Assembly: GCA_027069035.1 (NCBI GenBank) | Contig: JALXFI010000331.1 | Coordinates: 1-45,475 of the forward strand | Direction of reading: 5' to 3' | DNA length: 45,475 nt | DNA from: a bacterium | GTDB taxonomy: Bacteria; Desulfobacterota; GWC2-55-46; S146-80; JALXFI01 | In this document: one piece after another, positions 14,791 to 40,909 of the stretch | Layout: every line of letters begins with the position of its first letter | Numbering within the stretch: the stretch's first letter is position 1 | The notes under the pieces: model-generated | Seen by the model: the letters and a program-made list of their open reading frames with translations, nothing else | The model's database searches: none | Told to the model about the DNA's origin: nothing | Position numbers and translations under genes: made by a program

Positions 14791-16377
14791 TTATAAATTT
14801 AGAAGATCAATTAGTCGTTCTTCAGTTGCCTTTCTAAAAAACATGTCTCTGTAATTCTTTGATAATTCAACTATACGATGGATATTCCTGTCTCTAAAAG
14901 CCATTAGCCTTTCATATGCTCGTATCAATTCATCTGCATCAAAGGCAATATCCCATATTTCACCTTTACCGATATCAGGAAGACAGTTAAATGTTATACC
15001 CCTATCATTACCAATTGAAATGACAGAACATCCCATTGTTGCTGCTTCTAAAATAGCACCACTTGAGCCAGAGGAGATCACCACTTTTGTCCTGTCACAG
15101 AGATGATCCAGCTTCTCTTTTGTTATAACCCATCCATCAGGTATTACAAATCCTGGATTATCAACCAGATGATTTGGATGAAGCTTAATTAATACATTGT
15201 TTTCTTTGCCAATCTGCGATGCTGAAACTACGTTTATAATATTCTTAGAGTCCTCAATATGAATTGTTAAAAGAATCAGAATATTATCTCTTTTTATCAG
15301 TTCTTTGTTATTATAATCTTTCCTAAATAGATAATCATACCTTGGTGATACACCAAGCTTATGTTTAAAATTCTTATCTGCGATTGATAGATATGCCTTT
15401 CCTGAAACCAGTATTTCATCCGGCACTAAATTGTATATTTTTTCATTTTTGATAGGGTATATATGTAACCAGAAGGAGAAGGGTATAAAGAACTGACACC
15501 CATATATATAACAATCTACAGTTGAGTCTCTGATACCCCTGTACAAAAACTTGTCATGGCGGCTATTCTCATACCAGCTTACTACCTTCAGACTTCTCTC
15601 TGATAGTCTATTTAATCTTCTCCCCACCAGATAGCTTACAAAGGCAAGTAACTCATTACCGTCAAGGCTGTTGATCAATTCTCTCTTCAATATCACATCA
15701 AAGGAATCGTCAATCTTAAGCTTAAGCACCTGCAATATTACAATGGGATATAAGAGAATAAAGTGCAGTAATCTAAAATAATCACTGATGGTTAAGAGTT
15801 CATACTCGGTAATAAAGATGTTACTATCCTCTGCAAGCATATTGTATGTACGCCATCTCTTCCTAAACTCATAAATCTTAACGCCTGAAAGGAGAGATAA
15901 TATGACATACTGTTTATTTCTCTTCTCTAAAACATCATACATCTTTCCAAAATATGGATCATAAAATCTATCATTTGGGAAATTCTTTTCAACCATTACA
16001 AAAGTATCTATCACAAAGAGCTCTTTGTCAGGGTCTAAAAGCTTCTTATTTTTTGAAGTGAGATTTAATTTTGATATTCTATAAACGAAGAAGTTTAAAG
16101 TAAATAATATAAAACATACGGACGCCTTGGAATAATATTTTATTAGTTTTTTAAAGAGATTAAACCAGTTGATTTTATAGCTTAATTTAATATTTTTAAA
16201 CAAAATCCTTATAGCATCTTCTATAAAAGCACTGGGAACAGGGTCCCTTGTGGTTACAGGGTTGGCTATAAAATAAATATTCTTACAGCACTTCAACACT
16301 ACCCTGTTCATATATTCATTTATGGCAGAACCAATCTCTTTCTGGACGTTGGTATTTTTAGCTATCTCCCTCCACAT
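14791..16377 (-). CDS. Large uncharacterised protein with a GT-B-like C-terminal half (candidate CMP-/CDP-sugar-dependent transferase)
   Basis: About 528 aa from the ATG at 16377 (the ORF-track start at 16395 is a TTG). Hydrophobic helices SVCFILFTLNFFVYRI and LLHFILLYPIVILQVL. C-terminal VLIKLHPNH (HP motif) followed by VVISSGSSGAILEAATMGCSVISIG. Confidence 0.4.
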   Translation of the reverse strand: MWREIAKNTNVQKEIGSAINEYMNRVVLKCCKNIYFIANPVTTRDPVPSAFIEDAIRILFKNIKLSYKINWFNLFKKLIKYYSKASVCFILFTLNFFVYRISKLNLTSKNKKLLDPDKELFVIDTFVMVEKNFPNDRFYDPYFGKMYDVLEKRNKQYVILSLLSGVKIYEFRKRWRTYNMLAEDSNIFITEYELLTISDYFRLLHFILLYPIVILQVLKLKIDDSFDVILKRELINSLDGNELLAFVSYLVGRRLNRLSERSLKVVSWYENSRHDKFLYRGIRDSTVDCYIYGCQFFIPFSFWLHIYPIKNEKIYNLVPDEILVSGKAYLSIADKNFKHKLGVSPRYDYLFRKDYNNKELIKRDNILILLTIHIEDSKNIINVVSASQIGKENNVLIKLHPNHLVDNPGFVIPDGWVITKEKLDHLCDRTKVVISSGSSGAILEAATMGCSVISIGNDRGITFNCLPDIGKGEIWDIAFDADELIRAYERLMAFRDRNIHRIVELSKNYRDMFFRKATEERLIDLLNL

Positions 16378-16378
16378 A

Positions 16379-17731
16379 TCATATCTTCTTTTCAAGCCAC
16401 TTATCTATCAGAAGTTCTGCTACTTTTATATCTGCATCGTTTCTAACCTCGATAGAAGCTACAGGGCTACTTACTTCATAGATACCAATATTTTGACCAA
16501 ATAAGTTGCCCACACGAATAAACTCAGGATGGGTTGCACAACATACTCCCCTTAACTCTAAATAGGTAGGGTCTTTAATTATTCGCGGTGTTAAACCCTC
16601 GTCTAGAAGCTTGATCTTCCCCTTACATTCCTTCCATATTGACTTATTTTCACTTTTCACTGCCACAATAGTATCAAAACCATTTTTAACTAATTGACTA
16701 ATCATATTGTCTATTATGTCATGTGGACGGAATGGGAATGTTATCTCAAGGGTGACAAGTAGGTCAGGAAATATTTTTAAGGATTCCATTTTTTCAACGG
16801 TGTGTTGAAATACACGTTCGATATCAATATAGTCTTCAGAGTATATGGGGTCTCGTAAAAACGGCACTTCGGCACCCAAATTCTCTGCTAATTTAGCAGT
16901 TTTTATGTTATCAGTAGAAACTATAACCCTTTTAACATACTTAGACCCCCTGGCAACTTCTATAGTATAGTCTAAAAGTGGTCTGTCTTTCAGATATGGA
17001 ACCTCTCCCTTTACAGGAATAACTGCTATAATATTCAAATCATTTATATCAACATGGATATTATTCTTGATATCCGGCATCAGATCTTCCAGTATCTTGA
17101 CCACATTAACACATCTACTTGCCTCTCCATTTTGATGTATGCCGTGATAATGGAAGACCCTAGCTTCTGGTTCATATACTATTTTATATTTTTTACGCAG
17201 CATTTTTTCAGCCCATACCCTATCTTCGATATTCGTTATAGTCTCATCAAAAGGAGTTTCCTCCCATAAACTCCTCCTTATCATGCTGTTCGCATTGTGG
17301 AAAAAGCTATCTTTTCTTTGTACTCTTCTGTCAAGACCGAAGATTATAGAAAGATCACGCTTGTCAGAGTCTGAAGTAAAAGCGAGAGGTTCTTGTCGTC
17401 CATAAACCCCTGCTACCTCTTCATCCTGAAAATTTCTAAGAAGGCTCGACAACCATTTTTCATTGACAGGTATACAATGACCCGAAAGGCATACTATGTA
17501 ATCTCCTTTTGCCTCTCTTATACCCATGTTGAGAGCAAGACCAGGTCTATAATCCCTACATTTCACAATTTTCACTATATCAAATTGCTTAGCCTTCTCA
17601 ATCGTCTTATCAGTACTTTCATTATCCACCAGGATAACCTCAAAGTCCCGGTACTCCTGATTGAATACACTCTTCAGGCACATAGTTATCCATCTCTCTT
17701 CATTTTTAGTTCTGATAACAATAGAAACCAT
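16379..17731 (-). CDS. Fusion protein B: N-terminal GT2-like domain (DxD replaced by LSGHC) plus C-terminal CTP_transf_3 cytidylyltransferase-like domain
   Basis: 450 aa. N-terminus VSIVIRTKNEE, ILVDNESTDKT, YIVCLSGHCIPVN. C-terminal half IIAVIPVKGEVPYLKDRPLLDYTIEVA, RVIVSTD, GAEVPFLRDP. Confidence 0.7.
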   Translation of the reverse strand: MVSIVIRTKNEERWITMCLKSVFNQEYRDFEVILVDNESTDKTIEKAKQFDIVKIVKCRDYRPGLALNMGIREAKGDYIVCLSGHCIPVNEKWLSSLLRNFQDEEVAGVYGRQEPLAFTSDSDKRDLSIIFGLDRRVQRKDSFFHNANSMIRRSLWEETPFDETITNIEDRVWAEKMLRKKYKIVYEPEARVFHYHGIHQNGEASRCVNVVKILEDLMPDIKNNIHVDINDLNIIAVIPVKGEVPYLKDRPLLDYTIEVARGSKYVKRVIVSTDNIKTAKLAENLGAEVPFLRDPIYSEDYIDIERVFQHTVEKMESLKIFPDLLVTLEITFPFRPHDIIDNMISQLVKNGFDTIVAVKSENKSIWKECKGKIKLLDEGLTPRIIKDPTYLELRGVCCATHPEFIRVGNLFGQNIGIYEVSSPVASIEVRNDADIKVAELLIDKWLEKKI

Positions 17732-17739
17732 TTGTTTAA

Positions 17740-18474
17740 CTAATTCTCTTTGTCCTCTTTAATAACGTCATCATATTTAATCTCATAGGAACCTATAGAC
17801 TGTTTTGCCTTTAATACATATTCAGCCAGCATAAGATCCTCTTTGGTTTTTATAATAATCGAAGTTTCTTTGCTTACAGGATAATACCCCACTTTGCCAC
17901 AAAATAAGGCGTATCCGTTCCTATCGAACTCCTTTATGAATGTTTTAGTTCGCCACATCATTATTGAATAAACAAATGGCTGGACAGGTTTAAGATCCTG
18001 AGTCTGTGCAAATACCTCACACATCTTAAAGTTAACGGGCTTGCCATCATAGATACAATGGACCTGCTCATTTTTTACTGTTATAAGGGTGTCAAGCCTC
18101 TTCTCAAGGAAATAACTTATAACCTCCCTTATTTCTTTACCCGTCTGCAATGGAGATGTAGGATTTACCCAAGCAACTATATCAGAGGGATATTTCAACA
18201 TAAAGTCATATACAACACTATCCGATTTAGTTGTGGATGAACCAAGTTCTTCAGGTCTAAGGTAAAAGTCTACCCCATAATGCCTTGCAATCTTTGCAAA
18301 GACTCCATAATCCGAGTTCAACACTATCTTATCAAACACCCCTGAGGACTTCGCCGCATCAATAGCATAGGCAATAAGGGGTTTCCCTCTCAATAGAGCA
18401 AGATTTTTTATCTTAAGGCGTGTGCTTCCTTTTCTTGCCGGGATCATAGCTATTATCTTCTCTTTTCTCTTCAA
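17740..18474 (-). CDS. Acylneuraminate (CMP-ulosonic acid) cytidylyltransferase, NeuA-like
   Basis: 244 aa. IIAMIPARKGSTRLKIKNLALLRGKPLIAYAIDAA and NPTSPL. TTG start with AAGGAGGAG 8 nt upstream. Confidence 0.8.
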   Translation of the reverse strand: MKRKEKIIAMIPARKGSTRLKIKNLALLRGKPLIAYAIDAAKSSGVFDKIVLNSDYGVFAKIARHYGVDFYLRPEELGSSTTKSDSVVYDFMLKYPSDIVAWVNPTSPLQTGKEIREVISYFLEKRLDTLITVKNEQVHCIYDGKPVNFKMCEVFAQTQDLKPVQPFVYSIMMWRTKTFIKEFDRNGYALFCGKVGYYPVSKETSIIIKTKEDLMLAEYVLKAKQSIGSYEIKYDDVIKEDKEN

Positions 18475-18501
18475 TGCCTATCTCCTCCTTATCTTAGACA
18501 A

Positions 18502-20145
18502 CTAATTATCTCCCCAACGCTTCCACAGTGTAAACTCATGATGCGTCTCAAATATGCCCTTTTGAGCTATCTCTCTATTAATCTTGGAGACATTTGTTAT
18601 TACGTCCCCCGAGGCGACTGAGAGAATATACTCAAAAAGTTCATCCCCCACTTCTTCAATAGACCTACCTTTAAGGACACTTTCTGTGAAGAAATCAACA
18701 TGCTTTTTCAAACCCATTTCATACCTGTTACCTATTTTAATCACCTGACTTAGAGCTGCACCAATAGGCGTACCTAGTCCTGTAGTAAAAGCTACAATCT
18801 GGGAACCCGAGAGACCAAGGGCTGTAGTTGATATTTGATCATAGCTTGGAGCATTCAGCACCCATAGTCCTCTTAAATCTTTATCATATATCCAGTCTCC
18901 GTAGTCAAGTACCCCTTCTATCACAGCGTTCCCACATTTTTGAGCGGCGGATGCAGATTTAACAAATATATTTAAAAGCCCTCCCTTTTTATTACCAGGG
19001 GCAACCTTCTGTCTACCTATCCCTGGTATTGGATATTGTTTGCTTATCCTATCAAAGGTTGGCAATAAGTCTCTCAATTTTCTTGCAACTTCCTCATTGC
19101 GCGCCCGCTCAGCTATTATATGCATATAACCATCAAACTCTGGGATTTCGGTAATGATTGCAGCTCCACCTCCTTTTACCAACTTATCTACTGCTCGACC
19201 GAGAACAGGATTAGCACAAATTCCAGAGAATATATCCGAACCCCCACATTTTAAACCCAATGTTAAGTATGATATAGGCAAAGGTTTTCGCCTACGTTTA
19301 TCAGCCACCCTCAGCAACTCCTTAATAGGTCCGTCAACAATCTGTTCGATTGCTTCCAACTCGCCGAGATAATGTTGGAGTTTATCGCTCATCACTCTCT
19401 TATCAAAATCAATTACTTTTGAACGAAGAAAAGGAATAATATTTTCTGGCGTTTCACTACAAGGCGTCAGATGTTCGCATCCAAGACCGAGTAGAAATAC
19501 AAATCCTATGTTTGGATGATTCATAATGCGAACCAAAATCTGTAGAAGTTCCTCCTTAGCTCCGCCTTCGGGTATTCCACAGCCTGATTCATGAGTAATA
19601 GCAACAACATCCGTCACATGGGGATATTTATGTAAAAGCCTTTTCCTTGCTAAGAAGGCTATATTCTTCACCGCTACTGCAGAACATTTCACTGTACTTA
19701 GTATAGCTACAATATTTTCTGTTCCTCCACCTTCTTTCCCATCAATTGTAACTTTACAAGGAAAACCTCTAAAAGTCCTCTTTAAAAGTAGAGGATCATA
19801 CCGACCTTTTTGGGGCGTGGTGGAAAATGTTTTATTAGAATATATCTCCGTCTCCATCTCACTGCACGCATTGTCATCAATTAATGACCCTGCGTCTATA
19901 AAACATCTCGCTTTTCCAATTGTAATACCAAAGGAGATTATATATTCTCCCTTATCTATATCTTTTATAGAAAAAAGACTACCTACAGGCATATCACTCT
20001 TCAATGTTATCTTTCTTGCGCCATCGTATAATACAAGCCCACAATGTAGAGGCTTTTTAGCTATGGCGATATTATCTCTAAGCTTATAGCCTGATGAATC
20101 TTCTGTAAAATTTGCCACAAAGGCATAATCTGAAAAACTTTTCAT
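18502..20145 (-). CDS. UxaA/GarD-family sugar-acid dehydratase (N-terminal SAF domain plus altronate/galactarate dehydratase C-domain)
   Basis: 547 aa. SAF-like N-terminus (SDMPVGSLFSIKDIDKGEYIISFGITIGKA). C-domain blocks LGLGCEH, LGLKCGGSDIFSGICANPVLG and ITEIPEF. Confidence 0.75.
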   Translation of the reverse strand: MKSFSDYAFVANFTEDSSGYKLRDNIAIAKKPLHCGLVLYDGARKITLKSDMPVGSLFSIKDIDKGEYIISFGITIGKARCFIDAGSLIDDNACSEMETEIYSNKTFSTTPQKGRYDPLLLKRTFRGFPCKVTIDGKEGGGTENIVAILSTVKCSAVAVKNIAFLARKRLLHKYPHVTDVVAITHESGCGIPEGGAKEELLQILVRIMNHPNIGFVFLLGLGCEHLTPCSETPENIIPFLRSKVIDFDKRVMSDKLQHYLGELEAIEQIVDGPIKELLRVADKRRRKPLPISYLTLGLKCGGSDIFSGICANPVLGRAVDKLVKGGGAAIITEIPEFDGYMHIIAERARNEEVARKLRDLLPTFDRISKQYPIPGIGRQKVAPGNKKGGLLNIFVKSASAAQKCGNAVIEGVLDYGDWIYDKDLRGLWVLNAPSYDQISTTALGLSGSQIVAFTTGLGTPIGAALSQVIKIGNRYEMGLKKHVDFFTESVLKGRSIEEVGDELFEYILSVASGDVITNVSKINREIAQKGIFETHHEFTLWKRWGDN

Positions 20146-20180
20146 CTCATAAATCTCTTAATGAAATTACTATTATAAGC

Positions 20181-21386
20181 TTATAAAAGCTCTATATATT
20201 TATCTCCTAAAAACCGAATGTCTATCCACCTACTACCATATTTAAGACTCTTATTTACGGCCTCAATTATCGCTGTGGGAACAATGGAAGCCTTGAAGGT
20301 TGGTCTCACACCCTCAAAAGCTTCGATCTCCTTACCCTCAGACTCAACTCTTACCACATCCCTGAAAAATTGAAGAATACTTTCAATACCATATCCCTGA
20401 AAGGAGATATTACCCTTCTGATAGCCATAGATCGAGCAGAAATCAGGATTAGGCTCTTCAATCCCATCCGTATCATGGACAATGTAGATACCTCTTCTCT
20501 TCTGGTCTGCCTCAAAGCGTCCTTTTGTAGCAATCACCTTAATCTTCTGGTCAGACATGGCAGAAGAGGTTTCAGGGTCTATCCAGTTAGTAAAAAAAGA
20601 GGATGAAAATATCTCTCCTGATGGCATTCTCCACTCAACAATAGCCTGTATGGAATCATAGGTGTCAATACCCTTTGAAGCCAAGAACATCTTCTGCCCT
20701 ATTGCCATTGCCCTTAGGGGGAGGGCTTTAGTTGCAAAATATATGATATCTGCATAGTGGACACCGAGGTATTGGAATATATTCGTTGTTTTGGCCCAAG
20801 CCTTAAATCTCTCCAGAGGGATACTCTTTCTCTGACTGTATTCTATTATGAAATACAAAGGGGTGCCTATCCTGCCACTTAAAATAGTATCTCTTAGTTT
20901 CAGATTAGAACGGTCTAATCTCTTATGAAACTCTACAGCACAATAGACATTATATTTCTCTTGAAGTTCTATTAATTCCAGGACTTCCTTGACTGTAGGT
21001 GCAAGGGGTTTAACCACAAGTGTATGAAGATCATTTTCAATCGTCTTGCCTGCTATCTTCCGATGGAGATTGTCAGGAGTTACAACTATCGCACAGGCAG
21101 GTTTGGAGATTTTTAGGATTGCTTCTTCGTAAGCTTCAGAATTGTAATGACTTTCTGGTAGATATCTTGGTCGAATCTCAAAGCCAAAGAGTTTATTGAG
21201 CTCTGCAACTTTTTCCTTTAAGGCATCTATGCCTTCTGGGCTAGCGCCCGCAATATAAATATCAGCGAGCATATTCATACGTTTCCATTCATACACAGCA
21301 GGCAGAACAGTTCCGTAACCTTCCGTCCCCCTTCCACATACATACATACCTGTCCCTATGATAAGTATATTTATTCTTTGCAACAT
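20181..21386 (-). CDS. Gfo/Idh/MocA-family NAD(P)-dependent oxidoreductase
   Basis: 401 aa. INILIIGTGMYVCGRG Rossmann start, VVTPDNLH, LVVKPLAPT (EKP-like motif), EFHKRLD. Confidence 0.75.
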   Translation of the reverse strand: MLQRINILIIGTGMYVCGRGTEGYGTVLPAVYEWKRMNMLADIYIAGASPEGIDALKEKVAELNKLFGFEIRPRYLPESHYNSEAYEEAILKISKPACAIVVTPDNLHRKIAGKTIENDLHTLVVKPLAPTVKEVLELIELQEKYNVYCAVEFHKRLDRSNLKLRDTILSGRIGTPLYFIIEYSQRKSIPLERFKAWAKTTNIFQYLGVHYADIIYFATKALPLRAMAIGQKMFLASKGIDTYDSIQAIVEWRMPSGEIFSSSFFTNWIDPETSSAMSDQKIKVIATKGRFEADQKRRGIYIVHDTDGIEEPNPDFCSIYGYQKGNISFQGYGIESILQFFRDVVRVESEGKEIEAFEGVRPTFKASIVPTAIIEAVNKSLKYGSRWIDIRFLGDKYIELL

Positions 21387-21470
21387 GGATGTAAATTCTG
21401 TTAAGTATCCAGATCTTTTTAAGTCTTTTGACTGTAGAATGGAAAAATTTATAAATATGCTATCCGAAAG

Positions 21471-22466
21471 CTAACCTTCTATAACCTCATCTATTACAGC
21501 ATCTTTATAGCGATGACATGTCCTGCAGGGTTTCATCTCTAAACGTCGTTTTTCCATATGAAGTCTTCTAAGGCTCTCCATTTTCTCCCCCAACCACACT
21601 TCTTTAATAGTATTCTCTTTCAAGTTACCTATAGGTATGTCAATGTCCCAGTCCGCAATGCAGACCGGAATCAACCCTGTAGAGGTGATGGTTATCCTTT
21701 GCCATAGAAACTGACATACAACCTCTTCATCCTGCTCAACGCTTCTTAAATGATAATCATGTTTGATGTTAAAACTTATATTGTCTGTAATAGGTTTAAA
21801 CATCTCATAGTATTCTCTAAGTTTACCCTTCGTGTATTCATATATCCCCTGAACCTTCACCTTAGGAAACCCCTTTCCAAATCTTTCTTTGAGTTCATAG
21901 AGTTGTTTAACCTTTCTATATATGTCATCGAAGCTAAGGGGTGTACGAAGATTATTATAGTGTTCTCTGAGAGAATCGATACTGATTGTTATATAATCGA
22001 GACCTGCTTTAATAAGCTTCATGTCAAAGTCTTTACTAAGGGCAGAGCCATTGCTAAGCAGAGATATTTCCTTAATTCCGGCTTTTCTTGCATATTCGAT
22101 CATATCTATAAGCATAGGATTTAGCGTTGACTCACCTCTCCAGCTTAACCTTATCGAATAAAGATTGTTTGCAGCACATTCATTTATACCCTTCCTATAA
22201 AGATCGAAGTCCATGTCAACATATGCATGTTCCTTCTTAAAATGCCTTCTAAAACACATAGGACAGGTTAAATTGCAACGAGAACTTGCCTCAAAATCCA
22301 CATGCAATGGGAAAGGGGCCACATAAAACCAGCGAGGATAATTAAACCATTGGAAGCGATTTTGAAAATAATAAAGTGGGAATCGGCGCTCCTCTTCCCA
22401 ACGTCGCTGTCTTTCTCCTTCGTCTATGCATGCCTGATTTATATTTATCTTTGTCTTAAGCCTCAT
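21471..22466 (-). CDS. Radical SAM enzyme with a Cys-poor SPASM/twitch-like C-terminal domain (paralogue 1)
   Basis: CNLTCPMC (CxxxCxxC). C-terminal Cys set C(QFLW)...C(IADW)...CRTC. Start moved to the ATG at 22466, which has GGGAGG 7 nt upstream; the ORF-track ATG at 22481 lacks an SD. Confidence 0.85.
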   Translation of the reverse strand: MRLKTKININQACIDEGERQRRWEEERRFPLYYFQNRFQWFNYPRWFYVAPFPLHVDFEASSRCNLTCPMCFRRHFKKEHAYVDMDFDLYRKGINECAANNLYSIRLSWRGESTLNPMLIDMIEYARKAGIKEISLLSNGSALSKDFDMKLIKAGLDYITISIDSLREHYNNLRTPLSFDDIYRKVKQLYELKERFGKGFPKVKVQGIYEYTKGKLREYYEMFKPITDNISFNIKHDYHLRSVEQDEEVVCQFLWQRITITSTGLIPVCIADWDIDIPIGNLKENTIKEVWLGEKMESLRRLHMEKRRLEMKPCRTCHRYKDAVIDEVIEG

Positions 22467-22566
22467 TTTTAATCCTCCCATTATCGATTGCTCGAGTAAT
22501 ACAACTATTACTAAGCATCAGTCCCTCACTAATCAAAGTAACTCAATGGAGTCACCTATATGGCAC

Positions 22567-23421
22567 CTATATCTTTTGTAATACAAATATTTTGTGATAA
22601 CCATATTCTCCAAAATTTGGTAACTTACTCGCAGCATCGAATATCTCTTCGTCATAAGTAAACTGTTTGATAAACTTTCCCAATATGACTTTATGGTATA
22701 ATACTCTTGTAATTAGCATGTATGTGGATGCATGGTATATCTCTTTTATAAGCTTATACTTACCACGAATATAATTTTTTAGATCTTCGTCTCTTAAGAA
22801 GACATTGTGCCAGTTACCAGCCCTATCCATCTTCATCTTTAGTTTTGCCCTAACAGCGTTCAACCGCTCAACAGCATCAACACTTCCTTCCAATAAAATA
22901 AGTCTTCCTCCCCTCTTGAGAACCTTTCTAATCTCATCTAATGCTTGCTGTTGGAGTTGCCATGAAGGGAGATTTATCACAACACGTGTTGAACAGACAA
23001 CATCAAACTCCTCCTCATACAAAGCTGAAAGTTCTAAGATGTCATGACATTCAAATCTAACCCTGCTTACTAATTGGGGATAGTCATCGTGCATAAGACT
23101 AATCGCGTTTTTTATCATCTCCTTTGAAAAATCAATTCCTAATAAACGCACGTCCTTTAGCCTCTTGGCGTACTCCAGAGTGGAATATCCATTGCCACAC
23201 CCTATATCCAGCACATACTCTCCTTTACGAATTTCTCTGACAACATTTTGTATCTCTAACTCCCTAAGGTTGGAGTCCTTTAAGGTCCCACCTTGCCCTT
23301 TGCTATCTATAAAATAATCACTTTCCCAATCGATGACCTTCAAACTATCAGTCTTCTCTCTATTTAGTACGGCTTGTTGATCCCAGTAATCTTTAATTTT
23401 CTTTTGTAACTCTGATTCCAT
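22567..23421 (-). CDS. Class I SAM-dependent methyltransferase
   Basis: Motif I VLDIGCGNGYST. Start moved to the ATG at 23421 (MESELQ...), which has a perfect AGGAGG 6 nt upstream. Confidence 0.85.
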   Translation of the reverse strand: MESELQKKIKDYWDQQAVLNREKTDSLKVIDWESDYFIDSKGQGGTLKDSNLRELEIQNVVREIRKGEYVLDIGCGNGYSTLEYAKRLKDVRLLGIDFSKEMIKNAISLMHDDYPQLVSRVRFECHDILELSALYEEEFDVVCSTRVVINLPSWQLQQQALDEIRKVLKRGGRLILLEGSVDAVERLNAVRAKLKMKMDRAGNWHNVFLRDEDLKNYIRGKYKLIKEIYHASTYMLITRVLYHKVILGKFIKQFTYDEEIFDAASKLPNFGEYGYHKIFVLQKI

Positions 23422-23534
23422 TCGATTCCTCCTCATCTATTTATTATACACAAAGGAGTTGCAACGTATGATTTCCAAGGACAATTTTGCTGCCCCTGCT
23501 TATTTCTTGGTCTTTGTAGAACTCTCAATATTCC

Positions 23535-24596
23535 TTATCCAAGATAATCTTCAGCTAAAATACTTTCAATCTGCCCAACAACATTAAATATACCATCCGT
23601 CAGAATTGATGCCAAAGTGGTAGAATTGTTATAAAGTCTTTGCCTCTCTTCAATATCTTTTAAAAAATCCTCAATAATGTCTCCCATCTCATCATTATTT
23701 ATAAGAGATACTTCACGTTTTATTCCTTTAACAAAACCCCTTTCTATCAATGGTGAAATATTTTTCACCTCTGTGTCTATTGAAGGCAGAACAAGTGTGG
23801 GTATACTCAACGCTATCATTTCGTATACAAGAGTCCCTCCAGATGTTATAGCTGCTTCACATTGGGATTGAAGATATACTAAGTTTGTACAATTTTGTAT
23901 AAGTTGCACTCTTCTTTTTTTGTCTTTGTTGAGCAAAATGGTTTTTATGTCTTGTAAGTATTTGAAAGCAGGACCTAATGCTATCAGGATTCTGAAAGAG
24001 TTATAATTATTCGAAAGCAATACATTTAAAACTCTTGATGAAATATTACAAGGGTCCGCTCCTCCAAAACAAATGAAGAGATTCCTAATAACTGGTGAAT
24101 AACTTGTACGTTTATAATTAGATATCTCAGGGGCAATCACCATATAGTCAATACCAAGCAAATAACAGGTTTTTAGTGAGCAATAGCGTTTTTCATCATG
24201 AGCAGTTAATGAAGGGTTTATTAACAATGTAGGTTCAATAAACTCCGTACTCACATCTTCATATACAACAGTTATAAGCTTCTCCTGATTGGCAAGATCT
24301 ATAATATGCTTTTTCCCATCTCTTAGATCAATATAAATGATAGCATTCAATTCTTTCGCAAGACAAACTATCTCCTTAGCCTCTTCTAAAGGCTTAACAT
24401 TTCTGTCCAGAACTTCCACATGGAAACCACTACTTTTGACTAAATTCACCCCCTCTGGATAGTTTTTCATTATAAACAGCAAATCTACATCTCTTCTTTT
24501 CAGTTCGTAAGCCAACCGCAGACATTTGAAGACATGTCCCATAGCAACACCATATATGTTACCTCCATCTACTCTGAAGATTATCTTTCTGCTCAT
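23535..24596 (-). CDS. PseG/SpsG-like nucleotide-sugar hydrolase (GT28-C-like fold)
   Basis: 353 aa. IIFRVDGGNIYGVAMGHVFKCLRLAYELKRRD matches the PseG N-terminal G-x-G-H...R/K-C-L pattern. ICFGGADPCN and ITSGGTLVYEMIALSIPTLVLP match the C-terminal half. Confidence 0.65.
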   Translation of the reverse strand: MSRKIIFRVDGGNIYGVAMGHVFKCLRLAYELKRRDVDLLFIMKNYPEGVNLVKSSGFHVEVLDRNVKPLEEAKEIVCLAKELNAIIYIDLRDGKKHIIDLANQEKLITVVYEDVSTEFIEPTLLINPSLTAHDEKRYCSLKTCYLLGIDYMVIAPEISNYKRTSYSPVIRNLFICFGGADPCNISSRVLNVLLSNNYNSFRILIALGPAFKYLQDIKTILLNKDKKRRVQLIQNCTNLVYLQSQCEAAITSGGTLVYEMIALSIPTLVLPSIDTEVKNISPLIERGFVKGIKREVSLINNDEMGDIIEDFLKDIEERQRLYNNSTTLASILTDGIFNVVGQIESILAEDYLG

Positions 24597-24598
24597 TA

Positions 24599-25609
24599 CT
24601 ATTCCAAAAGGGCAGATGAGATTAACGTATACTTTGGAATATCCCTCTTTAACTTTTTACCAAGAAAATCATTTATTAATTCAAGTTGACTTTCAGGGGT
24701 AGAAGGAGTAAGAAATTGGAGGTCATTTATTGTAAGTATATCCCCCTTTGACAAAGCCCTTCTTGAGTAAATTCCACGCCTTTTCCTAAATCTCTGACTT
24801 ACTTCGGATGTAGAGGGGACCTTAACCCCATCTCCGATAGCTTTTTCATAATTACGGACAAAAGAAACTAACCTTTTTAGCTCATCTGGTGAAGCTGAAC
24901 AGGCATGGTCTGGACCGGTCAGACTCTTATCCAGTGTAAAATGTTTTTCTATCACTTTTGCACCCATACAAACTGCTGCAAAAGCAATCTCTATACCAAC
25001 TGTATGATCAGAAAAACCATACGGATAGTTAAAGGTGGTAGCAAGAAGAGGTATAGCAGAAAGGTTACACTCTTCAATTGTGGTAGGATAACAGGAGACA
25101 CAATGTAAAATAATGATCTGTTTGTTTCCTTCCTCTTCAATCCATCTTACCGCAGTAGCAACCTCATTAAGGTAGCTCATACCGGTCGACAATATTATAG
25201 GTCTACCAAGTCTTGCCGCACTTTTAATAAGTTCTTTATAATTAAGATCCATTGAAGCAATTTTTACCGCTGGAGAGTTAATATTTTTAAGGAACTGAAT
25301 ATCTTCAAGAGATTCAGGTGTAGAAAATATTACACCATCTCTTTTTCTTGTATATTCGAATAAAAAAGCGTAATCTTCATAACTCAATTCACACATCTTA
25401 GCTGTTTTAAAACCAGGGTTGTCAGGATGTATAAAGTTTTCTGTTTTATAAGTCTGAATTTTCACCGCATTGGCTCCACACTCAAGTGCTGCATCTATAG
25501 TTTCACAGGCCAGTTTAACATCGCCATTATGATTGATGCCTATCTCAGCTATTATGTAAGCAAGCGATTCATCGCCTATTCTTTTGCCAGATATATCAAC
25601 ACATTCCAT
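24599..25609 (-). CDS. NeuB-family ulosonic acid synthase, paralogue 1 (NeuB/PseI/LegI class; specificity unknown)
   Basis: 336 aa. IIAEIGINHNGD, ILHCVSCYPT, FSDHTVG, VIEKHFTLDKS. C-terminal SAF-like RRGIYSRRALSKGDILTINDL. Confidence 0.9.
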   Translation of the reverse strand: MECVDISGKRIGDESLAYIIAEIGINHNGDVKLACETIDAALECGANAVKIQTYKTENFIHPDNPGFKTAKMCELSYEDYAFLFEYTRKRDGVIFSTPESLEDIQFLKNINSPAVKIASMDLNYKELIKSAARLGRPIILSTGMSYLNEVATAVRWIEEEGNKQIIILHCVSCYPTTIEECNLSAIPLLATTFNYPYGFSDHTVGIEIAFAAVCMGAKVIEKHFTLDKSLTGPDHACSASPDELKRLVSFVRNYEKAIGDGVKVPSTSEVSQRFRKRRGIYSRRALSKGDILTINDLQFLTPSTPESQLELINDFLGKKLKRDIPKYTLISSALLE

Positions 25610-25636
25610 ATGTTTACCTTTAAAAACTTTTAAGAC

Positions 25637-27010
25637 TTAATAAGTGTTGAGAATAATATCAAGTTCTTCTTGATTAAACTTACGTAACACTTCAGGTTTT
25701 AATTGATAAGGGTCAAACTCTATATTATATTTATGCATAAACTCACTCTGCTCGCCAAAAAAGACTGTCCGCTTCATTCCATAATCTTCAATTATAGTAA
25801 AACCAAACCTTCTGTAATCAAGGGTTTGCTTCTTTCTATTAAAGTCACCAGCAGGATTGCCTGCAGGAATAACAATCGATGACTCAAGTCCCTCAAAAGA
25901 ACTATTGAATATATCTATTTTACCCTGGTTCTTCTTATCAAGATAAAAGAGTATGGTCTCTCTTACTTCAAAGGGTGTTATAATACCTTTGATCTTTAGA
26001 TCAGAAGCTTTAATACTTTCCGGACAAAAAACAATAAATGGAACACCTATCTCTTCTTCAAATAATCCCCACAGATAATCGTCAGGTAGCTTTCTGATGA
26101 GTGTATCTCTGCTTGGAAGTTTGCCGAATTTGCCATGTTCACCTAATGAATAACCATGATCAGAGAAAAGAAAAAGCAAAGTATCCTCAAGAAAACCCAT
26201 TCTGTATATCTCCTCAATAAAAGACGCAATACTATCTGAGACCTTCCTGTGAAGTTCAGAGTACATATTGAGTATCTCCTTGTTCTGTTCAGGGCTATAG
26301 TAATCTGCATTCACATAGATAGGGTCATCAAGTTCCACCTCTCCTCCATCTATACGATATGTCCATGGTTCATGAGGTTCCCATATATCTACCCATAACA
26401 TAAAAGGCTTTGATTCCATCTTTCTGTATCCCTTAAGCCACCTTTCTGCCGAATTTAAGACTTCCTCATGAAAAGGCTTATCCATTCTTGTTAAGCTTCT
26501 ATACTTAGCTCTAGTAGGTTTGGCAACATACCGATAAAATTGTTCATTATATTTCAATGGAACTTGTTCAGGGAAATTATAAAGCCCCATGTAATTACCT
26601 TTAGTCTCGCTCCACACAGGATGTCCAGCAATCCATTCAATACCTTGAAATCCTTGAAAAAGGTTAAATCTCATGTAATGAGGCACATCTGTTATACACT
26701 GTGTTGCAGTCCCGCTATCTGATAACCTCCCTGCGAGGGTCTCAGCGTTTTCGGGAATAGGTTCAAAATAACCATACTTCCAGTAGGGTATCCCTTCAAA
26801 GAAATCCCTTCTAAATTGAACAGTTGGATAGGAAACTGGAAAAAACTTATCATGAACAAGTGTATTACCATGTTTCTTTATAAAATCACTTAGGCTATCT
26901 TCTATCCGTAGGTCTTCAAGGATTGGATTCTTACTTTCGTAGATCCTTAAAAAATCTTTTCTATATGTATCAACACAAATTACTATGACATTGTTTACAG
27001 TTTCTGACAT
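25637..27010 (-). CDS. Alkaline-phosphatase-superfamily (sulfatase/phosphotransferase-like) protein with no signal peptide or TM helix
   Basis: 457 aa. VIVICVDTYRKDFL metal-site start and LFLFSDHGYSLGEHGKFGK distal block. The expected C/S-x-P-x-R position appears to read T-V-Q-F-R (alignment by eye). Confidence 0.6.
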   Translation of the reverse strand: MSETVNNVIVICVDTYRKDFLRIYESKNPILEDLRIEDSLSDFIKKHGNTLVHDKFFPVSYPTVQFRRDFFEGIPYWKYGYFEPIPENAETLAGRLSDSGTATQCITDVPHYMRFNLFQGFQGIEWIAGHPVWSETKGNYMGLYNFPEQVPLKYNEQFYRYVAKPTRAKYRSLTRMDKPFHEEVLNSAERWLKGYRKMESKPFMLWVDIWEPHEPWTYRIDGGEVELDDPIYVNADYYSPEQNKEILNMYSELHRKVSDSIASFIEEIYRMGFLEDTLLFLFSDHGYSLGEHGKFGKLPSRDTLIRKLPDDYLWGLFEEEIGVPFIVFCPESIKASDLKIKGIITPFEVRETILFYLDKKNQGKIDIFNSSFEGLESSIVIPAGNPAGDFNRKKQTLDYRRFGFTIIEDYGMKRTVFFGEQSEFMHKYNIEFDPYQLKPEVLRKFNQEELDIILNTY

Positions 27011-27744
27011 TCAATACCTCCAGATTTAGACCCTATGTAAGGATTTAAGTCCATTAAATATTTTTTTAAAGCAACTCCACCACAATTAAAAAGAAAATCA
27101 ATAACAGAAAGGTTTGGAATAAATTTAGAGCCAATTTGAGGATATTCATGTAACTCAAACTCCTGGAACTTAACCTCAATATGATTTCTCTTAAAATCAT
27201 CTAAGATTAGATATTCTTTCCCAGATTGTCCCGACAAATAAACACCTGCTTTAACTTTATTGCATATATCTAATATTAATTGACTTGCTTTTGAGACCAC
27301 GTCAAGCTTAGAACTTCTGACAATCTCAAGCTCAAAGTCAGAAATATCAAGTACAAACTCGATCAAAGAGAAATTAAAGTCAGCCAGAAATTTATGCTTT
27401 TGTCTATATATCTTCTCAAAAGAAGGGAAAATCTGATCGAAATATGGTGTTTTGTTATAGCAATGGTAAATACTTTTTAAATTTTTATCTTGCCAGTTCT
27501 CATTATAACTGATTTCTATATCTGAAATTAAGGTGTCTCTGGGGGCCTGTTTTATAGGTACAGTTATCCAGATATCTCTATCTTTATTTCTAATCTTGTT
27601 TCTATTTTCGAAATGTCTTCTTTTGAACTGAACACTATCAAGTATAACGTATATATCTGCATGAAATAATTTATGCCAAAATCCAAGCCATGGCAAGTGT
27701 TCTGGTTGATGTATTGTGCATATCTTTTGTCGCTCAACATACAT
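26995..27744 (-). CDS. WbqC-like family protein (function unknown; glycan loci)
   Basis: 249 aa. IHQPEHLPWLGFWHKLFHADIYVILDSVQFKRRHFENRNKI is the characteristic WbqC N-terminal pattern. Confidence 0.75.
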   Translation of the reverse strand: MYVERQKICTIHQPEHLPWLGFWHKLFHADIYVILDSVQFKRRHFENRNKIRNKDRDIWITVPIKQAPRDTLISDIEISYNENWQDKNLKSIYHCYNKTPYFDQIFPSFEKIYRQKHKFLADFNFSLIEFVLDISDFELEIVRSSKLDVVSKASQLILDICNKVKAGVYLSGQSGKEYLILDDFKRNHIEVKFQEFELHEYPQIGSKFIPNLSVIDFLFNCGGVALKKYLMDLNPYIGSKSGGIECQKL

Positions 27745-27749
27745 CTCTT

Positions 27750-29432
27750 CTATTTTACTGAAAAAACCTTTTTCCAGTCATTATAAACCATCTCTTTATA
27801 AAAAGTTCTATCATATTCACTAAGTTTGCTCTTATTAATTAAAGATGGCTTATACCACTTATTTATTGGAGCAATAAATCCTCTTTTATCAGTTCTGAAC
27901 GCAACCTCCTTAGGGATATATTTTGAAGCAACTTTTTTAAATATGTATTTTGTTATTCCATCTTTGATTTTGAAATTTGAAGATATACTAAAAGCAAAGG
28001 ATATTAAACGCGGATCCAAAAACGGTGACCTGTTCTCAATACTATGTGCCATACTCATCCTGTCTGCCATATGCAAAAGAACCTGCATGCTTGTACAAAA
28101 ATCTGTATATCCCATACCATGAACAACTCCATCGAAAGGCTCAAAACACTTCTCTGTTATACTCTCCACATAAGAGTTAATTATTTCATCATTGGCATCC
28201 TGGTATCTATTAATTAATCTTGCATATCTTTTACTCGGTTTATCATAATACTTTTTTATAAGTGGGAAATAATTGCTCATTGCGGGAAGATTATATATCT
28301 GTTCATCATGGTGTATAATGAGGTATCTATGATAACCACCAAACAACTCATCAACTCCTTCACCTGATAAAATGACTTTGACATATTTTGAAGCCTCTTT
28401 TAAGATACAAAACATATTAAAGCTCGACCACGTGCATGGAAAATCTAAATGATAGATTATTGTCTCTCTGTATTCTTCAAAATCTTCTTTTGTGGGTCTT
28501 ACGATGATTAGCTCTTGATTAATAGCATTTGCAGTCATCTTCGCATATTTTAATTCATCATATTGCTCACCATAATTATAGAAATCATAAGTAAGTGTAA
28601 ATATATAGCGGGGCTTTGCAATAACCGACAACAGTGAGCTATCCACACCTCCACTTAATAAACACCCAAAATCGTATACTGAATTCCCTGTTCTGATCGC
28701 TATAGCATCCTTTATAAGCATTTCTAATTCTTCGGTGGTCTCTTCTTCACTTTCTGGAACATTTGAATATAGGTTATCTTCAATGCGCCAGTAAGTCTTA
28801 TGTAATATTTCCTCTCCATCATATATTAAGTACTCCCCTGGTAAAATTGAGTATATATTCTTGAAAAGTGTATCTCTATCAGAGCATATCTCAAATGCCT
28901 TGTATGAATAACAATCTTTGTTTTCAACCGCATCAACAATAGTTAGAAGTGATTTAATCTCACTTGCAAAGAAAAAACCTTTCTCATTGCTCGTATAATA
29001 TATATTTTTCTCTCCAGCAATATCCCTGCACAAAATTAATTGCTTTTTATTCTTATCATAAATTGCAATGGCAAACATACCATTTATTTTTGGTAAAACA
29101 TTTAATCCCCACTCTTCATAGGCATGGAGGATGGTTTCGGCGTCAGAATCATTCATAAAAATATGAGCACTTGAAAGTCTTTTTCTTAATTCTCTATGAT
29201 TATATATCTCACCATTATAAACTAAGAGGATAGAACCATCTTCATTTGTGTATGGTATTGAATGCTTTTCATTATCAATAATAGAGAGCCTGACCATTCC
29301 CATAGATATATTATTAAAAACCACATACTCCTCTTGATCAGGTCCCCGATGTCTTATCTTAAGCAACATCTCTGAGGTCAACTTATTCAAGTCGAGTCTT
29401 TTTTTAGCAACAATGCCTACTATTCCACACAT
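27750..29432 (-). CDS. Asparagine synthase B-family glutamine amidotransferase (glycan-associated paralogue 2)
   Basis: Start set at the ATG at 29432 so the protein begins MCGIVG (obligatory Ntn Cys). The ORF-track start at 29450 is a GTG. HRGPDQ, RLSIIDN and the PP-loop LLSGGVDSS are present. TAA-g-ATG junction with the upstream gene. Confidence 0.9.
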   Translation of the reverse strand: MCGIVGIVAKKRLDLNKLTSEMLLKIRHRGPDQEEYVVFNNISMGMVRLSIIDNEKHSIPYTNEDGSILLVYNGEIYNHRELRKRLSSAHIFMNDSDAETILHAYEEWGLNVLPKINGMFAIAIYDKNKKQLILCRDIAGEKNIYYTSNEKGFFFASEIKSLLTIVDAVENKDCYSYKAFEICSDRDTLFKNIYSILPGEYLIYDGEEILHKTYWRIEDNLYSNVPESEEETTEELEMLIKDAIAIRTGNSVYDFGCLLSGGVDSSLLSVIAKPRYIFTLTYDFYNYGEQYDELKYAKMTANAINQELIIVRPTKEDFEEYRETIIYHLDFPCTWSSFNMFCILKEASKYVKVILSGEGVDELFGGYHRYLIIHHDEQIYNLPAMSNYFPLIKKYYDKPSKRYARLINRYQDANDEIINSYVESITEKCFEPFDGVVHGMGYTDFCTSMQVLLHMADRMSMAHSIENRSPFLDPRLISFAFSISSNFKIKDGITKYIFKKVASKYIPKEVAFRTDKRGFIAPINKWYKPSLINKSKLSEYDRTFYKEMVYNDWKKVFSVK

Positions 29433-29433
29433 C

Positions 29434-30750
29434 TTATTCCCAGGTATCACCTCCGAGTAATGTATATTTTAATCCATTTTCGTTCAGCTTATACCTCGAC
29501 CAAACCTCACATGTATCCATTACAATCTTTGTATCTTTTAAATATCTCTTCAATTTAGAACAACTTATCTTTTTATACTTACTATGAGCTGTAAGTACCA
29601 AGACAGCATCGAAAGAAGAGATATCTTCTGGAAAATCAACCACTTGAGTCTGAGTTATCTCATATAACGTAGCCTTTGAATACATAGGATCATTTATACC
29701 AACCTTTATACCTTTATCAGAAAATAGTTCTATAAATCTCAATGCAGGACTGTTGAGATGAAGTCTTGAATCAGGTCTATAAGACAACCCAAGAATTAGA
29801 ACCGACGACACTTTCTGAGAAAGAACCCTCTCAGAAATTATCTGAATCATTTCATAGTCTGTTCTCATTGCTTCATTTAATAGAGTTAAGCTCTCTGGCA
29901 CCTTGCTCGCTTCAGACAGGAAATAACTTGACATGGGAAAGTTAAATCCACCTATACCAGCCGTAGGGCGATATTCGTTAAGCTCAGGATGGGTTGCTGC
30001 AAGTTGTATCACCTTGTTGATGTTACACCCTGGAAATGCCTGAGAAAGTTGGTTTGCAAATGCCATATTTATATATTGAAATGAATTCTCAACACATCTC
30101 GCAAGTTCTACTTCAAAAAAGTTTTCAACTGTCACAATATTATCGTCGATAAGCTCGCAAATTTCCTTAGCCACTAACAGCGATTTATTATCATGACTGC
30201 CGATTAGTCTCCCTAAAGAAACATTCTTAACGTAAGGGTTATAATCCCAATCTCTTCTTGGAGCAACTACCATCAAGTAATCTTTACCTAAAGACTTGCC
30301 TGCCTCACTCAACGCAGGTATAACTATCTCCTCCATCGTTCCTGGTAGAAATGACGACTCCAATATTATTATTGGCTTGAGATTGTTTCTTAATATTGGG
30401 ATATCTTTGAGCTTATTAAGGACATTATAAAGATTTTGATATGTTGGTTTACCAGCCTTCTCCACGGGTACACATAAGAAGTGAACGAGTATGTCTTTTA
30501 GATTTATATTATCAATAGTTTTTAATGAACAATTCTCAAGCTCACCTTCCACAACCACATCATAAGCCCAGTATGTTTTTCTTAATTCTTTAAAATGTTG
30601 CTCTAATTGCTCAATAGTTTTATATTTTGTATCAATTAATATACAACTAATTCCTAATTCTGAATACTTTATTAAGGTATAATATCCTAAATATCCACTC
30701 CCCCATATCGCTATAGAGAAATTATTGTTAAGTAATTCTTTTGTATACAT
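29434..30750 (-). CDS. UDP-glucose/GDP-mannose dehydrogenase-family protein; catalytic Cys position apparently Asn
   Basis: 438 aa. IAIWGSGYLGYYTLIKY Rossmann motif. The central region TAGIGGFNFPMSS aligns by eye to the family GG-x-C-x-P-K-D motif with C replaced by N and K-D replaced by M-S. Confidence 0.7.
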   Translation of the reverse strand: MYTKELLNNNFSIAIWGSGYLGYYTLIKYSELGISCILIDTKYKTIEQLEQHFKELRKTYWAYDVVVEGELENCSLKTIDNINLKDILVHFLCVPVEKAGKPTYQNLYNVLNKLKDIPILRNNLKPIIILESSFLPGTMEEIVIPALSEAGKSLGKDYLMVVAPRRDWDYNPYVKNVSLGRLIGSHDNKSLLVAKEICELIDDNIVTVENFFEVELARCVENSFQYINMAFANQLSQAFPGCNINKVIQLAATHPELNEYRPTAGIGGFNFPMSSYFLSEASKVPESLTLLNEAMRTDYEMIQIISERVLSQKVSSVLILGLSYRPDSRLHLNSPALRFIELFSDKGIKVGINDPMYSKATLYEITQTQVVDFPEDISSFDAVLVLTAHSKYKKISCSKLKRYLKDTKIVMDTCEVWSRYKLNENGLKYTLLGGDTWE

Positions 30751-30772
30751 AGTTCTACTCCTTTTTAGATAC

Positions 30773-31426: not shown

Positions 31427-31442
31427 AACATCTCTACCTCTA

Positions 31443-32210: not shown

Positions 32211-32216
32211 AGCTAC

Positions 32217-37269: not shown

Positions 37270-37271
37270 GA

Positions 37272-40908: not shown

Positions 40909-40909
40909 A

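Follow-up and report, generated by a model that had tools for sequence, protein, structure and literature searches.

A BtrN-type twitch radical SAM enzyme in a conserved NeuB/PseG-like gene module

Nonulosonic acids (sialic, legionaminic and pseudaminic acids) cap the surfaces of bacteria and archaea, where they control recognition by the immune system, the binding of phages, the assembly of flagella and the charge of the surface layer (S-layer). To our knowledge, all described routes to these sugars use polar chemistry only. Here, we analyze a locus of this type from a Desulfobacterota bacterium (contig JALXFI010000331.1). The window is the whole metagenomic contig (45,475 nt, about 36% G+C), which is packed with genes for glycan biosynthesis, every one of them on the minus strand. 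It codes for a twitch-domain radical S-adenosylmethionine (SAM) enzyme, rSAM1, as part of a conserved gene module that also comprises a nonulosonate synthase of the NeuB family and a PseG-like protein. The closest described systems are the following.

(a) The pseudaminic acid pathway of Campylobacter and Helicobacter (PseB, PseC, PseH, PseG, PseI and PseF) shares with the window a PseG-like GT-B protein coupled to a NeuB-family synthase, with a CTP_transf_3 gene nearby. However, the window has no PseB, PseC or PseH, and the matches to PseG, PseI and PseF are all below the equivalog cut-offs. The module, in turn, adds the radical SAM enzyme, WbqC and PIG-L, all of which are lacking in the canonical pathway.

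(b) SpsE, SpsF and SpsG of Bacillus subtilis are encoded by the spore-crust legionaminic acid genes. SpsE is the best relative of the first NeuB paralog of the window (NeuB-1) in the PDB, and cytidylyltransferases of the SpsF-like type are also encoded there. Besides an acetyltransferase, the sps cluster codes for an aminotransferase of the DegT type, and it is not known to contain a radical SAM gene.

(c) Ca. Kuenenia stuttgartiensis makes nonulosonic acids activated with cytidine monophosphate (CMP), termed CMP-NulOs, that carry a free amine along with an N-formyl group (one of each), as well as 14 Da variants (SugarBase, bioRxiv 10.64898/2026.04.20.719630). This preprint is the sole experimental reference point for the module. 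The gene cluster (legB-legF-legC-deacetylase-formyltransferase-neuB-legF-legG; same preprint) has a deacetylase (PIG-L), NeuB, an SpsF-like “legF” and a PseG-like “legG”, and thus the same type of architecture as the module described here. A locus from Ca. Kuenenia hertensis (L048) matches this cluster and additionally contains WbqC and a twitch radical SAM enzyme, both of which are unmentioned in the preprint. The Kuenenia radical SAM enzyme belongs, however, to another clade (clade 8) than rSAM1 (clade 9), and the window is devoid of the short-chain dehydrogenase/reductase (SDR), the DegT protein and the formyltransferase of the Kuenenia cluster.

(d) BtrN, the 2-deoxy-scyllo-inosamine dehydrogenase of butirosin biosynthesis, shares with rSAM1 the CxxxCxxC SAM cluster and one four-Cys auxiliary cluster, and both have a carbohydrate-type substrate context. 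At an identity of only about 17%, the comparison covers the fold and the cluster ligands. BtrN carries out a two-electron oxidation of a secondary alcohol, in which the auxiliary cluster serves as electron acceptor; for rSAM1, such an activity is putative. The rSAM1 family differs from BtrN in having an additional, conserved segment of some 55 residues at the N-terminus (with R42 and W45). The BtrN pathway leads to an aminocyclitol and includes a partner aminotransferase, whereas rSAM1 is encoded in a nonulosonate cluster and has no aminotransferase partner in the window.

(e) A literature search found no paper that links radical SAM chemistry to nonulosonic acids, with the exception of an unexplained radical SAM-like ORF (13-c) in some Legionella lipopolysaccharide loci. 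A Leptospira paper on nonulosonic acids mentions no radical SAM enzyme. The association described below is strong, widespread and unreported.

The conserved module and its proteins

(a) The conserved unit consists of a twitch radical SAM enzyme, a WbqC-family protein, a PIG-L-type de-N-acetylase, a PseG-like protein and NeuB, often together with an SpsF-like or NeuA-like cytidylyltransferase. The whole set is present in the window (21471-32210), along with a methyltransferase:

21471-22481, minus strand: rSAM1, twitch-domain radical SAM enzyme of clade 9 (PF04055, 2e-14; SPASM domain PF13186, 2e-11)
22567-23436, minus strand: class I SAM-dependent methyltransferase (Methyltransf_31/25/11/12, down to 4e-20)
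23535-24596, minus strand: PseG/SpsG-like GT-B protein (TIGR03590, 121.5 bits, below the cut-off; no Pfam match)
24599-25609, minus strand: NeuB-1, nonulosonate synthase (phosphoenolpyruvate (PEP) + aldose) with a C-terminal SAF domain (PF03102, 6e-78)
26995-27744, minus strand: WbqC-family protein, conserved partner (PF08889, 1.5e-68)
30773-31426, minus strand: PIG-L/LmbE-type de-N-acetylase, conserved partner (PF02585, 3e-16)
31443-32210, minus strand: SpsF-like cytidylyltransferase (CTP_transf_3; PF02348, 1.4e-22)

The first-pass annotation had treated the first four of these genes as a cassette. The four ORFs are found as described, all on the minus strand. The order given there (radical SAM enzyme first) is that of the plus strand; transcription runs in reverse, from NeuB-1 via the PseG-like gene and the methyltransferase to rSAM1. 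As a unit, however, the cassette did not hold up: it is an arbitrary slice rather than a functional unit, because the conserved unit also needs WbqC, PIG-L and the SpsF-like cytidylyltransferase.

(b) Co-occurrence was analyzed in two samples. One consists of 42 genome loci (each at least 18 kb) anchored on the radical SAM enzyme, and the other of 34 metagenome loci (each at least 9 kb), which were anchored on WbqC and sampled independently of the first set. The ORFs of 65 loci were clustered and re-annotated with hidden Markov models (HMMs) built from the clusters. In the rSAM-anchored sample, NeuB and the PseG-like gene are each present in 38 of the 42 loci, PIG-L in 35, WbqC in 33, DegT in 26, an SDR in 25 and an SpsF-like cytidylyltransferase in 23. 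The recurrent gene order is [SDR DegT] PIG-L WbqC (carbamoyl-, formyl- or acetyltransferase) rSAM ... NeuB PseG-like (CMP-synthetase, LIC12162-family transferase), and a core of four genes (rSAM, WbqC, NeuB and PseG-like) is very common. In the WbqC-anchored sample, 15 loci have both the radical SAM gene and NeuB and 17 have neither, with a single locus each for NeuB only and rSAM only (Fisher p=2e-7). The closest gene sets form an orthologous group of NeuB, PseG-like, rSAM1 and WbqC (45-67% identity) that recurs in L066-L068 and in L001; the identities to the genes of L066 are 64% for NeuB-1, 46% for the PseG-like protein, 67% for rSAM1 and 45% for WbqC. Most carriers of the module are anaerobic bacteria and archaea.

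WbqC and PIG-L are a very tight pair (31 of the 34 WbqC-anchored loci; L072-L151), and about half of these loci are devoid of NeuB and the radical SAM gene, so that the pair is likely to have a more general role in amino-sugar remodeling. A WbqC profile retrieved no relative from the PDB, and a literature search on WbqC function found no characterization.

(c) The radical SAM family was searched for among 1.84 billion representative sequences, which yielded 4,275 clusters at E<=1e-30. Several fusions were found among the top 150. The radical SAM domain is fused to NeuB and SAF (P0292; this radical SAM part is 41% identical to rSAM1), to CTP_transf_3 (P0326), to a LegB/GalE-like SDR (P0299), to a 2-hydroxyacid dehydrogenase resembling phosphoglycerate dehydrogenase and glyoxylate reductase (P0344 and P0398) and to methyltransferases (P0290 and P0333). 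The architecture of P0326 is also that of the NCBIfam model TIGR04321 (“spiro-SPASM”), an uncharacterized spirochaete fusion. The N-terminal part of this model is matched by the SpsF-like proteins of the window, and the C-terminal part by rSAM1 and by its paralog rSAM2. In the window, however, the two halves are separate genes, and all scores are far below the cut-off of 250 bits. A literature search on spiro-SPASM or on TIGR04331, a further family encoded in the window (see below), found nothing.

(d) rSAM1 belongs to the radical SAM superfamily (PF04055, 54.5 bits with a cut-off of 29.5). The motif CNLTCPMC, pointed out in the first-pass annotation, corresponds to C69-N-L-T-C73-P-M-C76, and its C69-x3-C73-x2-C76 pattern is kept in 136-137 of the 137 family members for which residue conservation was scored. 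R115-G116-E117 (a GGE-like motif) is invariant. There are exactly four C-terminal Cys residues, as had been noted. These (C256, C274, C319 and C322) are conserved in 97-100% of the members and are arranged in the twitch pattern C256-x12-G269-x4-C274 ... C319-x2-C322. With 62 bits and a cut-off of 170 bits, rSAM1 is outside the NCBIfam “twitch” model NF033640. When a profile of 59 homologs was compared with the PDB, BtrN was retrieved with an E-value of 4e-22 and the runner-up with 3e-11, and all four Cys ligands of the BtrN auxiliary cluster align with those of rSAM1. BtrN is also first in a Foldseek search (TMt 0.75) with the AlphaFold2 (AF2) model of rSAM1, which has a predicted local distance difference test score (pLDDT) of 92.8. 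SPASM maturases of RiPPs (peptides that are made on the ribosome and modified after translation), the anaerobic sulfatase-maturating enzyme (anSME) and the peptide epimerase EpeE are also among the structural matches. rSAM1 is a BtrN-type twitch enzyme, as proposed from the sequence at the outset, and not a full SPASM protein.

(e) The closest relatives of rSAM1 bear no functional name. They are from Desulfobacterota symbionts, Scalindua, Kuenenia, Omnitrophota, Elusimicrobiota, Methanospirillum, Methanoregula and others. Clade 9, to which rSAM1 belongs, has 19 members in the loci analyzed, and in 8 of these 19 an aminotransferase (AT3) and an SpsF-like cytidylyltransferase (CTPspsF) are encoded directly upstream. 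The paralog rSAM2 from the same contig is 28% identical to rSAM1. In Kuenenia- and Omnitrophota-type loci (L016, L019, L021, L022, L025, L048 and L064), the clade-8 radical SAM gene adjoins a sulfotransferase-like gene and sometimes one for adenosine 5'-phosphosulfate (APS) kinase, a context that may point to nonulosonates or glycans that are sulfated.

(f) The GT-B protein is below the equivalog cut-off for PseG (TIGR03590, 121.5 bits versus 153.55 bits), and a single-sequence phmmer search against the PDB did not find PseG. A profile built from 29 sequences did: PseG (3hbm) was retrieved with an E-value of 5e-15, followed by the next match with 8e-5, and MurG (7d1i) with only 0.59. This decides in favor of PseG over MurG at the level of sequence profiles. 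The alignment that the first-pass annotation had suggested places G20-H21, kept in at least 90% of the 29 homologs, on the GFGH loop of Campylobacter jejuni PseG with its catalytic His17. A His at this position is also used by GT1 and MurG transferases, so that the motif alone is not proof of hydrolase activity. The AF2 model (pLDDT 92.4) has a GT-B fold, and among the Foldseek matches listed, PseG (3hbn) has the lowest root-mean-square deviation (3.5 A; TMt 0.80, 20% identity). Homologs are named “SpsG” in the sources, and in most related loci the PseG-like gene adjoins NeuB. Judging from these comparisons, the protein likely hydrolyzes a nucleotide sugar and thereby supplies NeuB-1 with the aldose, rather than being a transferase.

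(g) NeuB-1 is a member of the NeuB family (PF03102, 262 bits, cut-off 22.1), while its SAF domain is marginal (20.8 bits). It is below the equivalog cut-offs for NeuB_NnaB (TIGR03569, 306.2 bits versus 399.65) and for PseI (TIGR03586, 272.1 bits versus 340.25), so that the product is not assignable from sequence to the Neu, Pse or Leg type. The best PDB relatives are SpsE (1vli, 9e-54), 6ncs and PseI (8h2c). In the NeuB-1 clade, 12 of the 14 members are encoded within two genes of a PseG-like gene.

There are three NeuB paralogs in the window (24599-25609, 37272-38336 and 39874-40965) with a mutual identity of only 30-36%. These are accompanied by four stand-alone CTP_transf_3 genes (17740, 31443, 38396 and 39129) and two GT2+CTP_transf_3 fusions (16379-17731 and 43952-45358). 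The contig may code for up to three different ulosonic acids. A 584-aa ORF (35521-37275) matches TIGR04331 (“LIC12162 family transferase”) with 401 bits. This family follows the NeuB and PseG-like genes in many related loci, and the protein is probably a nonulosonate transferase.

(h) The methyltransferase has the class I signature (Methyltransf_31, 72.6 bits, and Methyltransf_25, 70.5 bits, with cut-offs of 27), and no NCBIfam model reaches its cut-off. Homologs of lineage-specific genes were looked for across 151 related loci. For the methyltransferase, there is one (34% identity), which is encoded directly upstream of twitch radical SAM genes in L046. This is thus a lineage-specific tailoring enzyme. 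On the other hand, methyltransferases of other families often adjoin members of the radical SAM family or are fused to them.

(i) The intergenic gaps are 85 nt (22482-22566), 98 nt (23437-23534) and 2 nt, the first two in agreement with the earlier estimate (about 85-100 bp). The Shine-Dalgarno (SD) sequence GGAGG precedes an internal ATG at 22466 in rSAM1, and AGGAGG precedes one at 23421 in the methyltransferase gene. In both ORFs, the first ATG overlaps the SD sequence of the second ATG, which is five codons downstream. The true starts are thus likely 22466 and 23421, giving shorter proteins, and the real gaps probably measure some 100 and 113 nt. In the database, rSAM1 has 331 aa, in agreement with the internal start. 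It had been suggested that these gaps hold sub-operonic promoters. Promoter-like matches in the region 16000-33000 are at chance level (61 versus 64.2 expected), as are terminator-like matches (8 versus 8.5 expected), which leaves such promoters without support.

Possible roles of the radical SAM enzyme

(a) From the observed gene identities, synteny, co-occurrence, fusions and relation to BtrN, we infer a substrate stage and a probable type of reaction, which may be an oxidation, an epimerization or a dehydration. We see an even chance that the four genes serve as part of a conserved module for a nonulosonic (sialic-acid-like) sugar, with the BtrN-like radical SAM enzyme acting on the nonulosonate, its precursor or its CMP form. 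An N-acetyl-hexosamine nucleotide sugar would be de-N-acetylated or re-acylated by PIG-L and its partners. The PseG-like hydrolase would release the free aldose, NeuB-1 would condense it with PEP, and a CTP_transf_3 enzyme would convert the product to its CMP-activated form. The radical SAM enzyme would abstract a hydrogen atom from a carbinol carbon of the nonulosonate, its immediate precursor or its CMP derivative, giving a keto (or radical) intermediate. Partner enzymes may then reduce (with net epimerization), transaminate, methylate or otherwise tailor this intermediate, and the class I methyltransferase would add a methyl group in this lineage.

The radical SAM domain is fused to NeuB and to CTP_transf_3 and is often encoded beside an SpsF-like gene, which suggests an action at the NeuB step or shortly thereafter, on the nonulosonate or its CMP derivative. 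Of the two targets initially considered for tailoring, the hexose precursor and the nonulosonate itself, the fusions point to the nonulosonate rather than to the UDP-hexose stage. The chemistry considered in the first-pass annotation (anaerobic oxidation of an alcohol, epimerization or deamination) is a putative one. A route via a keto intermediate is in keeping with the fully Cys-ligated auxiliary cluster and with the recurrent partners, which are NAD(P)H oxidoreductases, aminotransferases and methyltransferases. Going further, we tentatively propose, at somewhat less than even confidence, that BtrN-like twitch radical SAM enzymes are a near-obligate part of an alternative nonulosonate pathway of anaerobes. 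They would represent the first radical chemistry there, acting on the nine-carbon acid, and would be diversified by at least eight clades into sugars as yet undescribed.

(b) Several points weigh against this proposal. The family, which is known from sequence and predicted structure, is split into no fewer than eight clades, and a single locus can have as many as five copies, so that several reactions are likely rather than one for all. The window is devoid of the usual partners of clade 9, which are a carbamoyltransferase, a clade-18 radical SAM enzyme and a class III aminotransferase. The gene for a GFO-type oxidoreductase (20181-21386) was considered as the reductase partner of rSAM1 and was rejected, because its gene block also occurs in L069, where there is no twitch radical SAM gene (see below). 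The Foldseek E-value ranks MurG (first, 1.5e-12) and GT1 enzymes above PseG, so that the PseG-like protein could be a transferase; with MurG first by fold and PseG first by sequence profile, the fold does not discriminate. Finally, the sugar composition of Kuenenia is explained without a mass-changing radical SAM step, which argues against net oxidation or deoxygenation in that organism.

(c) This last point is accommodated if the enzyme is a direct radical epimerase that inverts a stereocenter of the nonulosonate or of its hexose precursor and yields a Leg or Pse stereoisomer of the same mass. A precedent is NeoN, the radical epimerase of aminoglycoside synthesis. The mass of the Kuenenia CMP-NulOs needs only deacetylation, formylation and methylation, and the radical SAM gene is nevertheless kept in that type of cluster. 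It is present in 15 of the 16 WbqC-anchored loci that contain NeuB, as expected of a core step that sets stereochemistry, and one of the structural matches is EpeE, a peptide epimerase. However, there is no family-wide lone Cys as a hydrogen atom donor. C102 was considered as such a donor and was dropped because a Cys is found at this position in only 48% of the 137 family members. The all-Cys auxiliary cluster and the fusions to NAD(P)H oxidoreductases better suit a keto intermediate. We consider direct epimerization unlikely.

(d) The enzyme might also act earlier, on a nucleotide-hexose, by oxidizing a hydroxyl group for a subsequent aminotransferase, in analogy to BtrN and BtrS. This would make it an oxygen-independent substitute for PseB and PseC. 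BtrN is the closest solved relative, a fusion of a LegB/GalE-like SDR with the radical SAM domain exists, and a class III aminotransferase gene directly follows the radical SAM gene in 9 of 12 clade-18 loci. In the window, however, no aminotransferase gene adjoins rSAM1, and the fusions to NeuB and CTP_transf_3 indicate a stage after the condensation. In addition, PseB and LegB are themselves oxygen-independent, so that an anaerobic substitute is not obviously needed. This makes the earlier stage quite improbable.

(e) AprD4 and its partner AprD3 are the precedent for radical dehydration followed by reduction. An AprD4-like diol dehydratase would work with an NAD(P)H reductase to deoxygenate the sugar after the condensation (e.g., to a 9-deoxy form) and would take the place of PseB or LegB. 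The window and the clade-9 loci are mostly devoid of SDR dehydratases and DegT, fusions to SDR and to 2-hydroxyacid dehydrogenases exist, and some clades are found beside GFO reductases. In the largest clade (clade 10, n=30), however, 19 loci have an SDR and 20 have DegT, so that no replacement is needed there. We regard such a dehydratase as very unlikely.

(f) We rejected as hardly credible that rSAM1 matures peptides or proteins, be it as a RiPP SPASM enzyme or as an anSME-like one for the sulfatase-superfamily protein encoded four genes upstream (25637-27010), although SPASM maturases of RiPPs and anSME do figure in the list of structural matches. The conserved C-terminal Cys residues number four, in place of a seven-Cys SPASM motif; the gaps (85-113 nt) are too small for a precursor gene; the sulfatase-like gene has no homolog in the related loci and, by eye, no standard motif (see below); and the conserved neighbors and fusion partners are sugar enzymes. 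The sugar context expected from the first-pass annotation is thus borne out.

Other genes of the window

(a) The first-pass annotation had not recognized PseB/LegB, PseC/LegC or PseH nearby, and this extends to the whole window, which contains no true representative of any of them; a NeuC/LegG-type epimerase was not seen there either. The sole 4,6-dehydratase (12800-13972) matches the CDP-glucose enzyme at equivalog level (455 bits) and is paired with RfbF. In the sole DegT-like ORF (7242-8309, 355 aa), the match to the aminotransferase profiles is confined to their N-terminal half (34-50 bits, cut-offs 375-630), and the ORF may code for a degenerate or strongly divergent aminotransferase. A FemAB-like gene (6247-7263) adjoins it.

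(b) The remaining features of interest are the following:

25637-27010, minus strand: sulfatase/alkaline-phosphatase-superfamily protein (Pfam, NCBIfam), lineage-specific
27750-29450, minus strand: AsnB-type amidotransferase (Pfam, NCBIfam), lineage-specific
29434-30750, minus strand: nucleoside diphosphate (NDP)-sugar dehydrogenase (Pfam, NCBIfam), lineage-specific
39874-40965, minus strand: NeuB-3, adjoining rSAM2
40910-41911, minus strand: rSAM2, second twitch radical SAM paralog, a singleton clade (PF04055 and PF13186)
41916-43952, adjoining rSAM2: KedN5-like B12-dependent radical SAM protein (B12-rSAM; NCBIfam)

The lineage-specific genes in the span 25637-30750, which encloses WbqC, are rare or absent in related loci. 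The sulfatase-like gene sits between WbqC, with which it overlaps by 16 nt, and NeuB-1. It has no homolog in the 151 related loci, and inspection by eye revealed no C/S-x-P-x-R formylglycine motif. The protein might be a phosphatase or phosphotransferase that acts on a phosphorylated sugar.

(c) B12-rSAM genes recur in related loci. The one from the window codes for a KedN5-like B12-dependent radical SAM C-methyltransferase. C-methylation by such an enzyme could yield carbon-extended ulosonic acids, and C10 ulosonic species have reportedly been found in Magnetospirillum.

(d) A block of five minus-strand genes (14791-21386) codes for a GFO/IDH/MocA protein, a UxaA/altronate-dehydratase-like protein, a PseF/KdsB-like cytidylyltransferase, a GT2+CTP_transf_3 fusion and a TIGR04326-like protein (534 aa, 14791-16395, a weak match). 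It is kept in L069 (8774-15356) in the same order, with 51-75% identity, in a locus devoid of a twitch radical SAM gene. The GFO-UxaA genes form a separate mobile block downstream of rSAM1. Other relatives of the UxaA-like protein are found in catabolic contexts. One possible role of the block is to make a CMP-activated 2-keto-3-deoxy sugar acid without NeuB. Alternatively, and by analogy to Treponema denticola, it could provide, together with the methyltransferase, a 3-deoxy-2-O-methyl-aldonate side chain. The flagellin nonulosonate of T. denticola bears a 2-methoxy-4,5,6-trihydroxyhexanoyl side chain (PMC13439194). There is no Treponema homolog among the top 120 UxaA matches, and a literature search for a further link was empty.

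Biological meaning

Several carriers of the module are likely available in culture, because the genomes of Methanospirillum lacunae Ki8-1, Aquabacterium sp. A7-Y and Desulfobaculum sp. SPO524 bear no label as metagenome-assembled. The proposal is directly testable in Ca. Kuenenia, for which the CMP-NulO profile has already been measured. If it is correct, it would give a function to three co-traveling “hypothetical” families, which are the twitch radical SAM enzymes, WbqC and the spiro-SPASM fusion. It would also explain unassigned genes in clusters from anammox bacteria, methanogens, sulfate reducers and Omnitrophota. With a radical SAM step that is conserved, the biosynthesis of nonulosonates would then gain new types of reaction and probably also new sugar structures.

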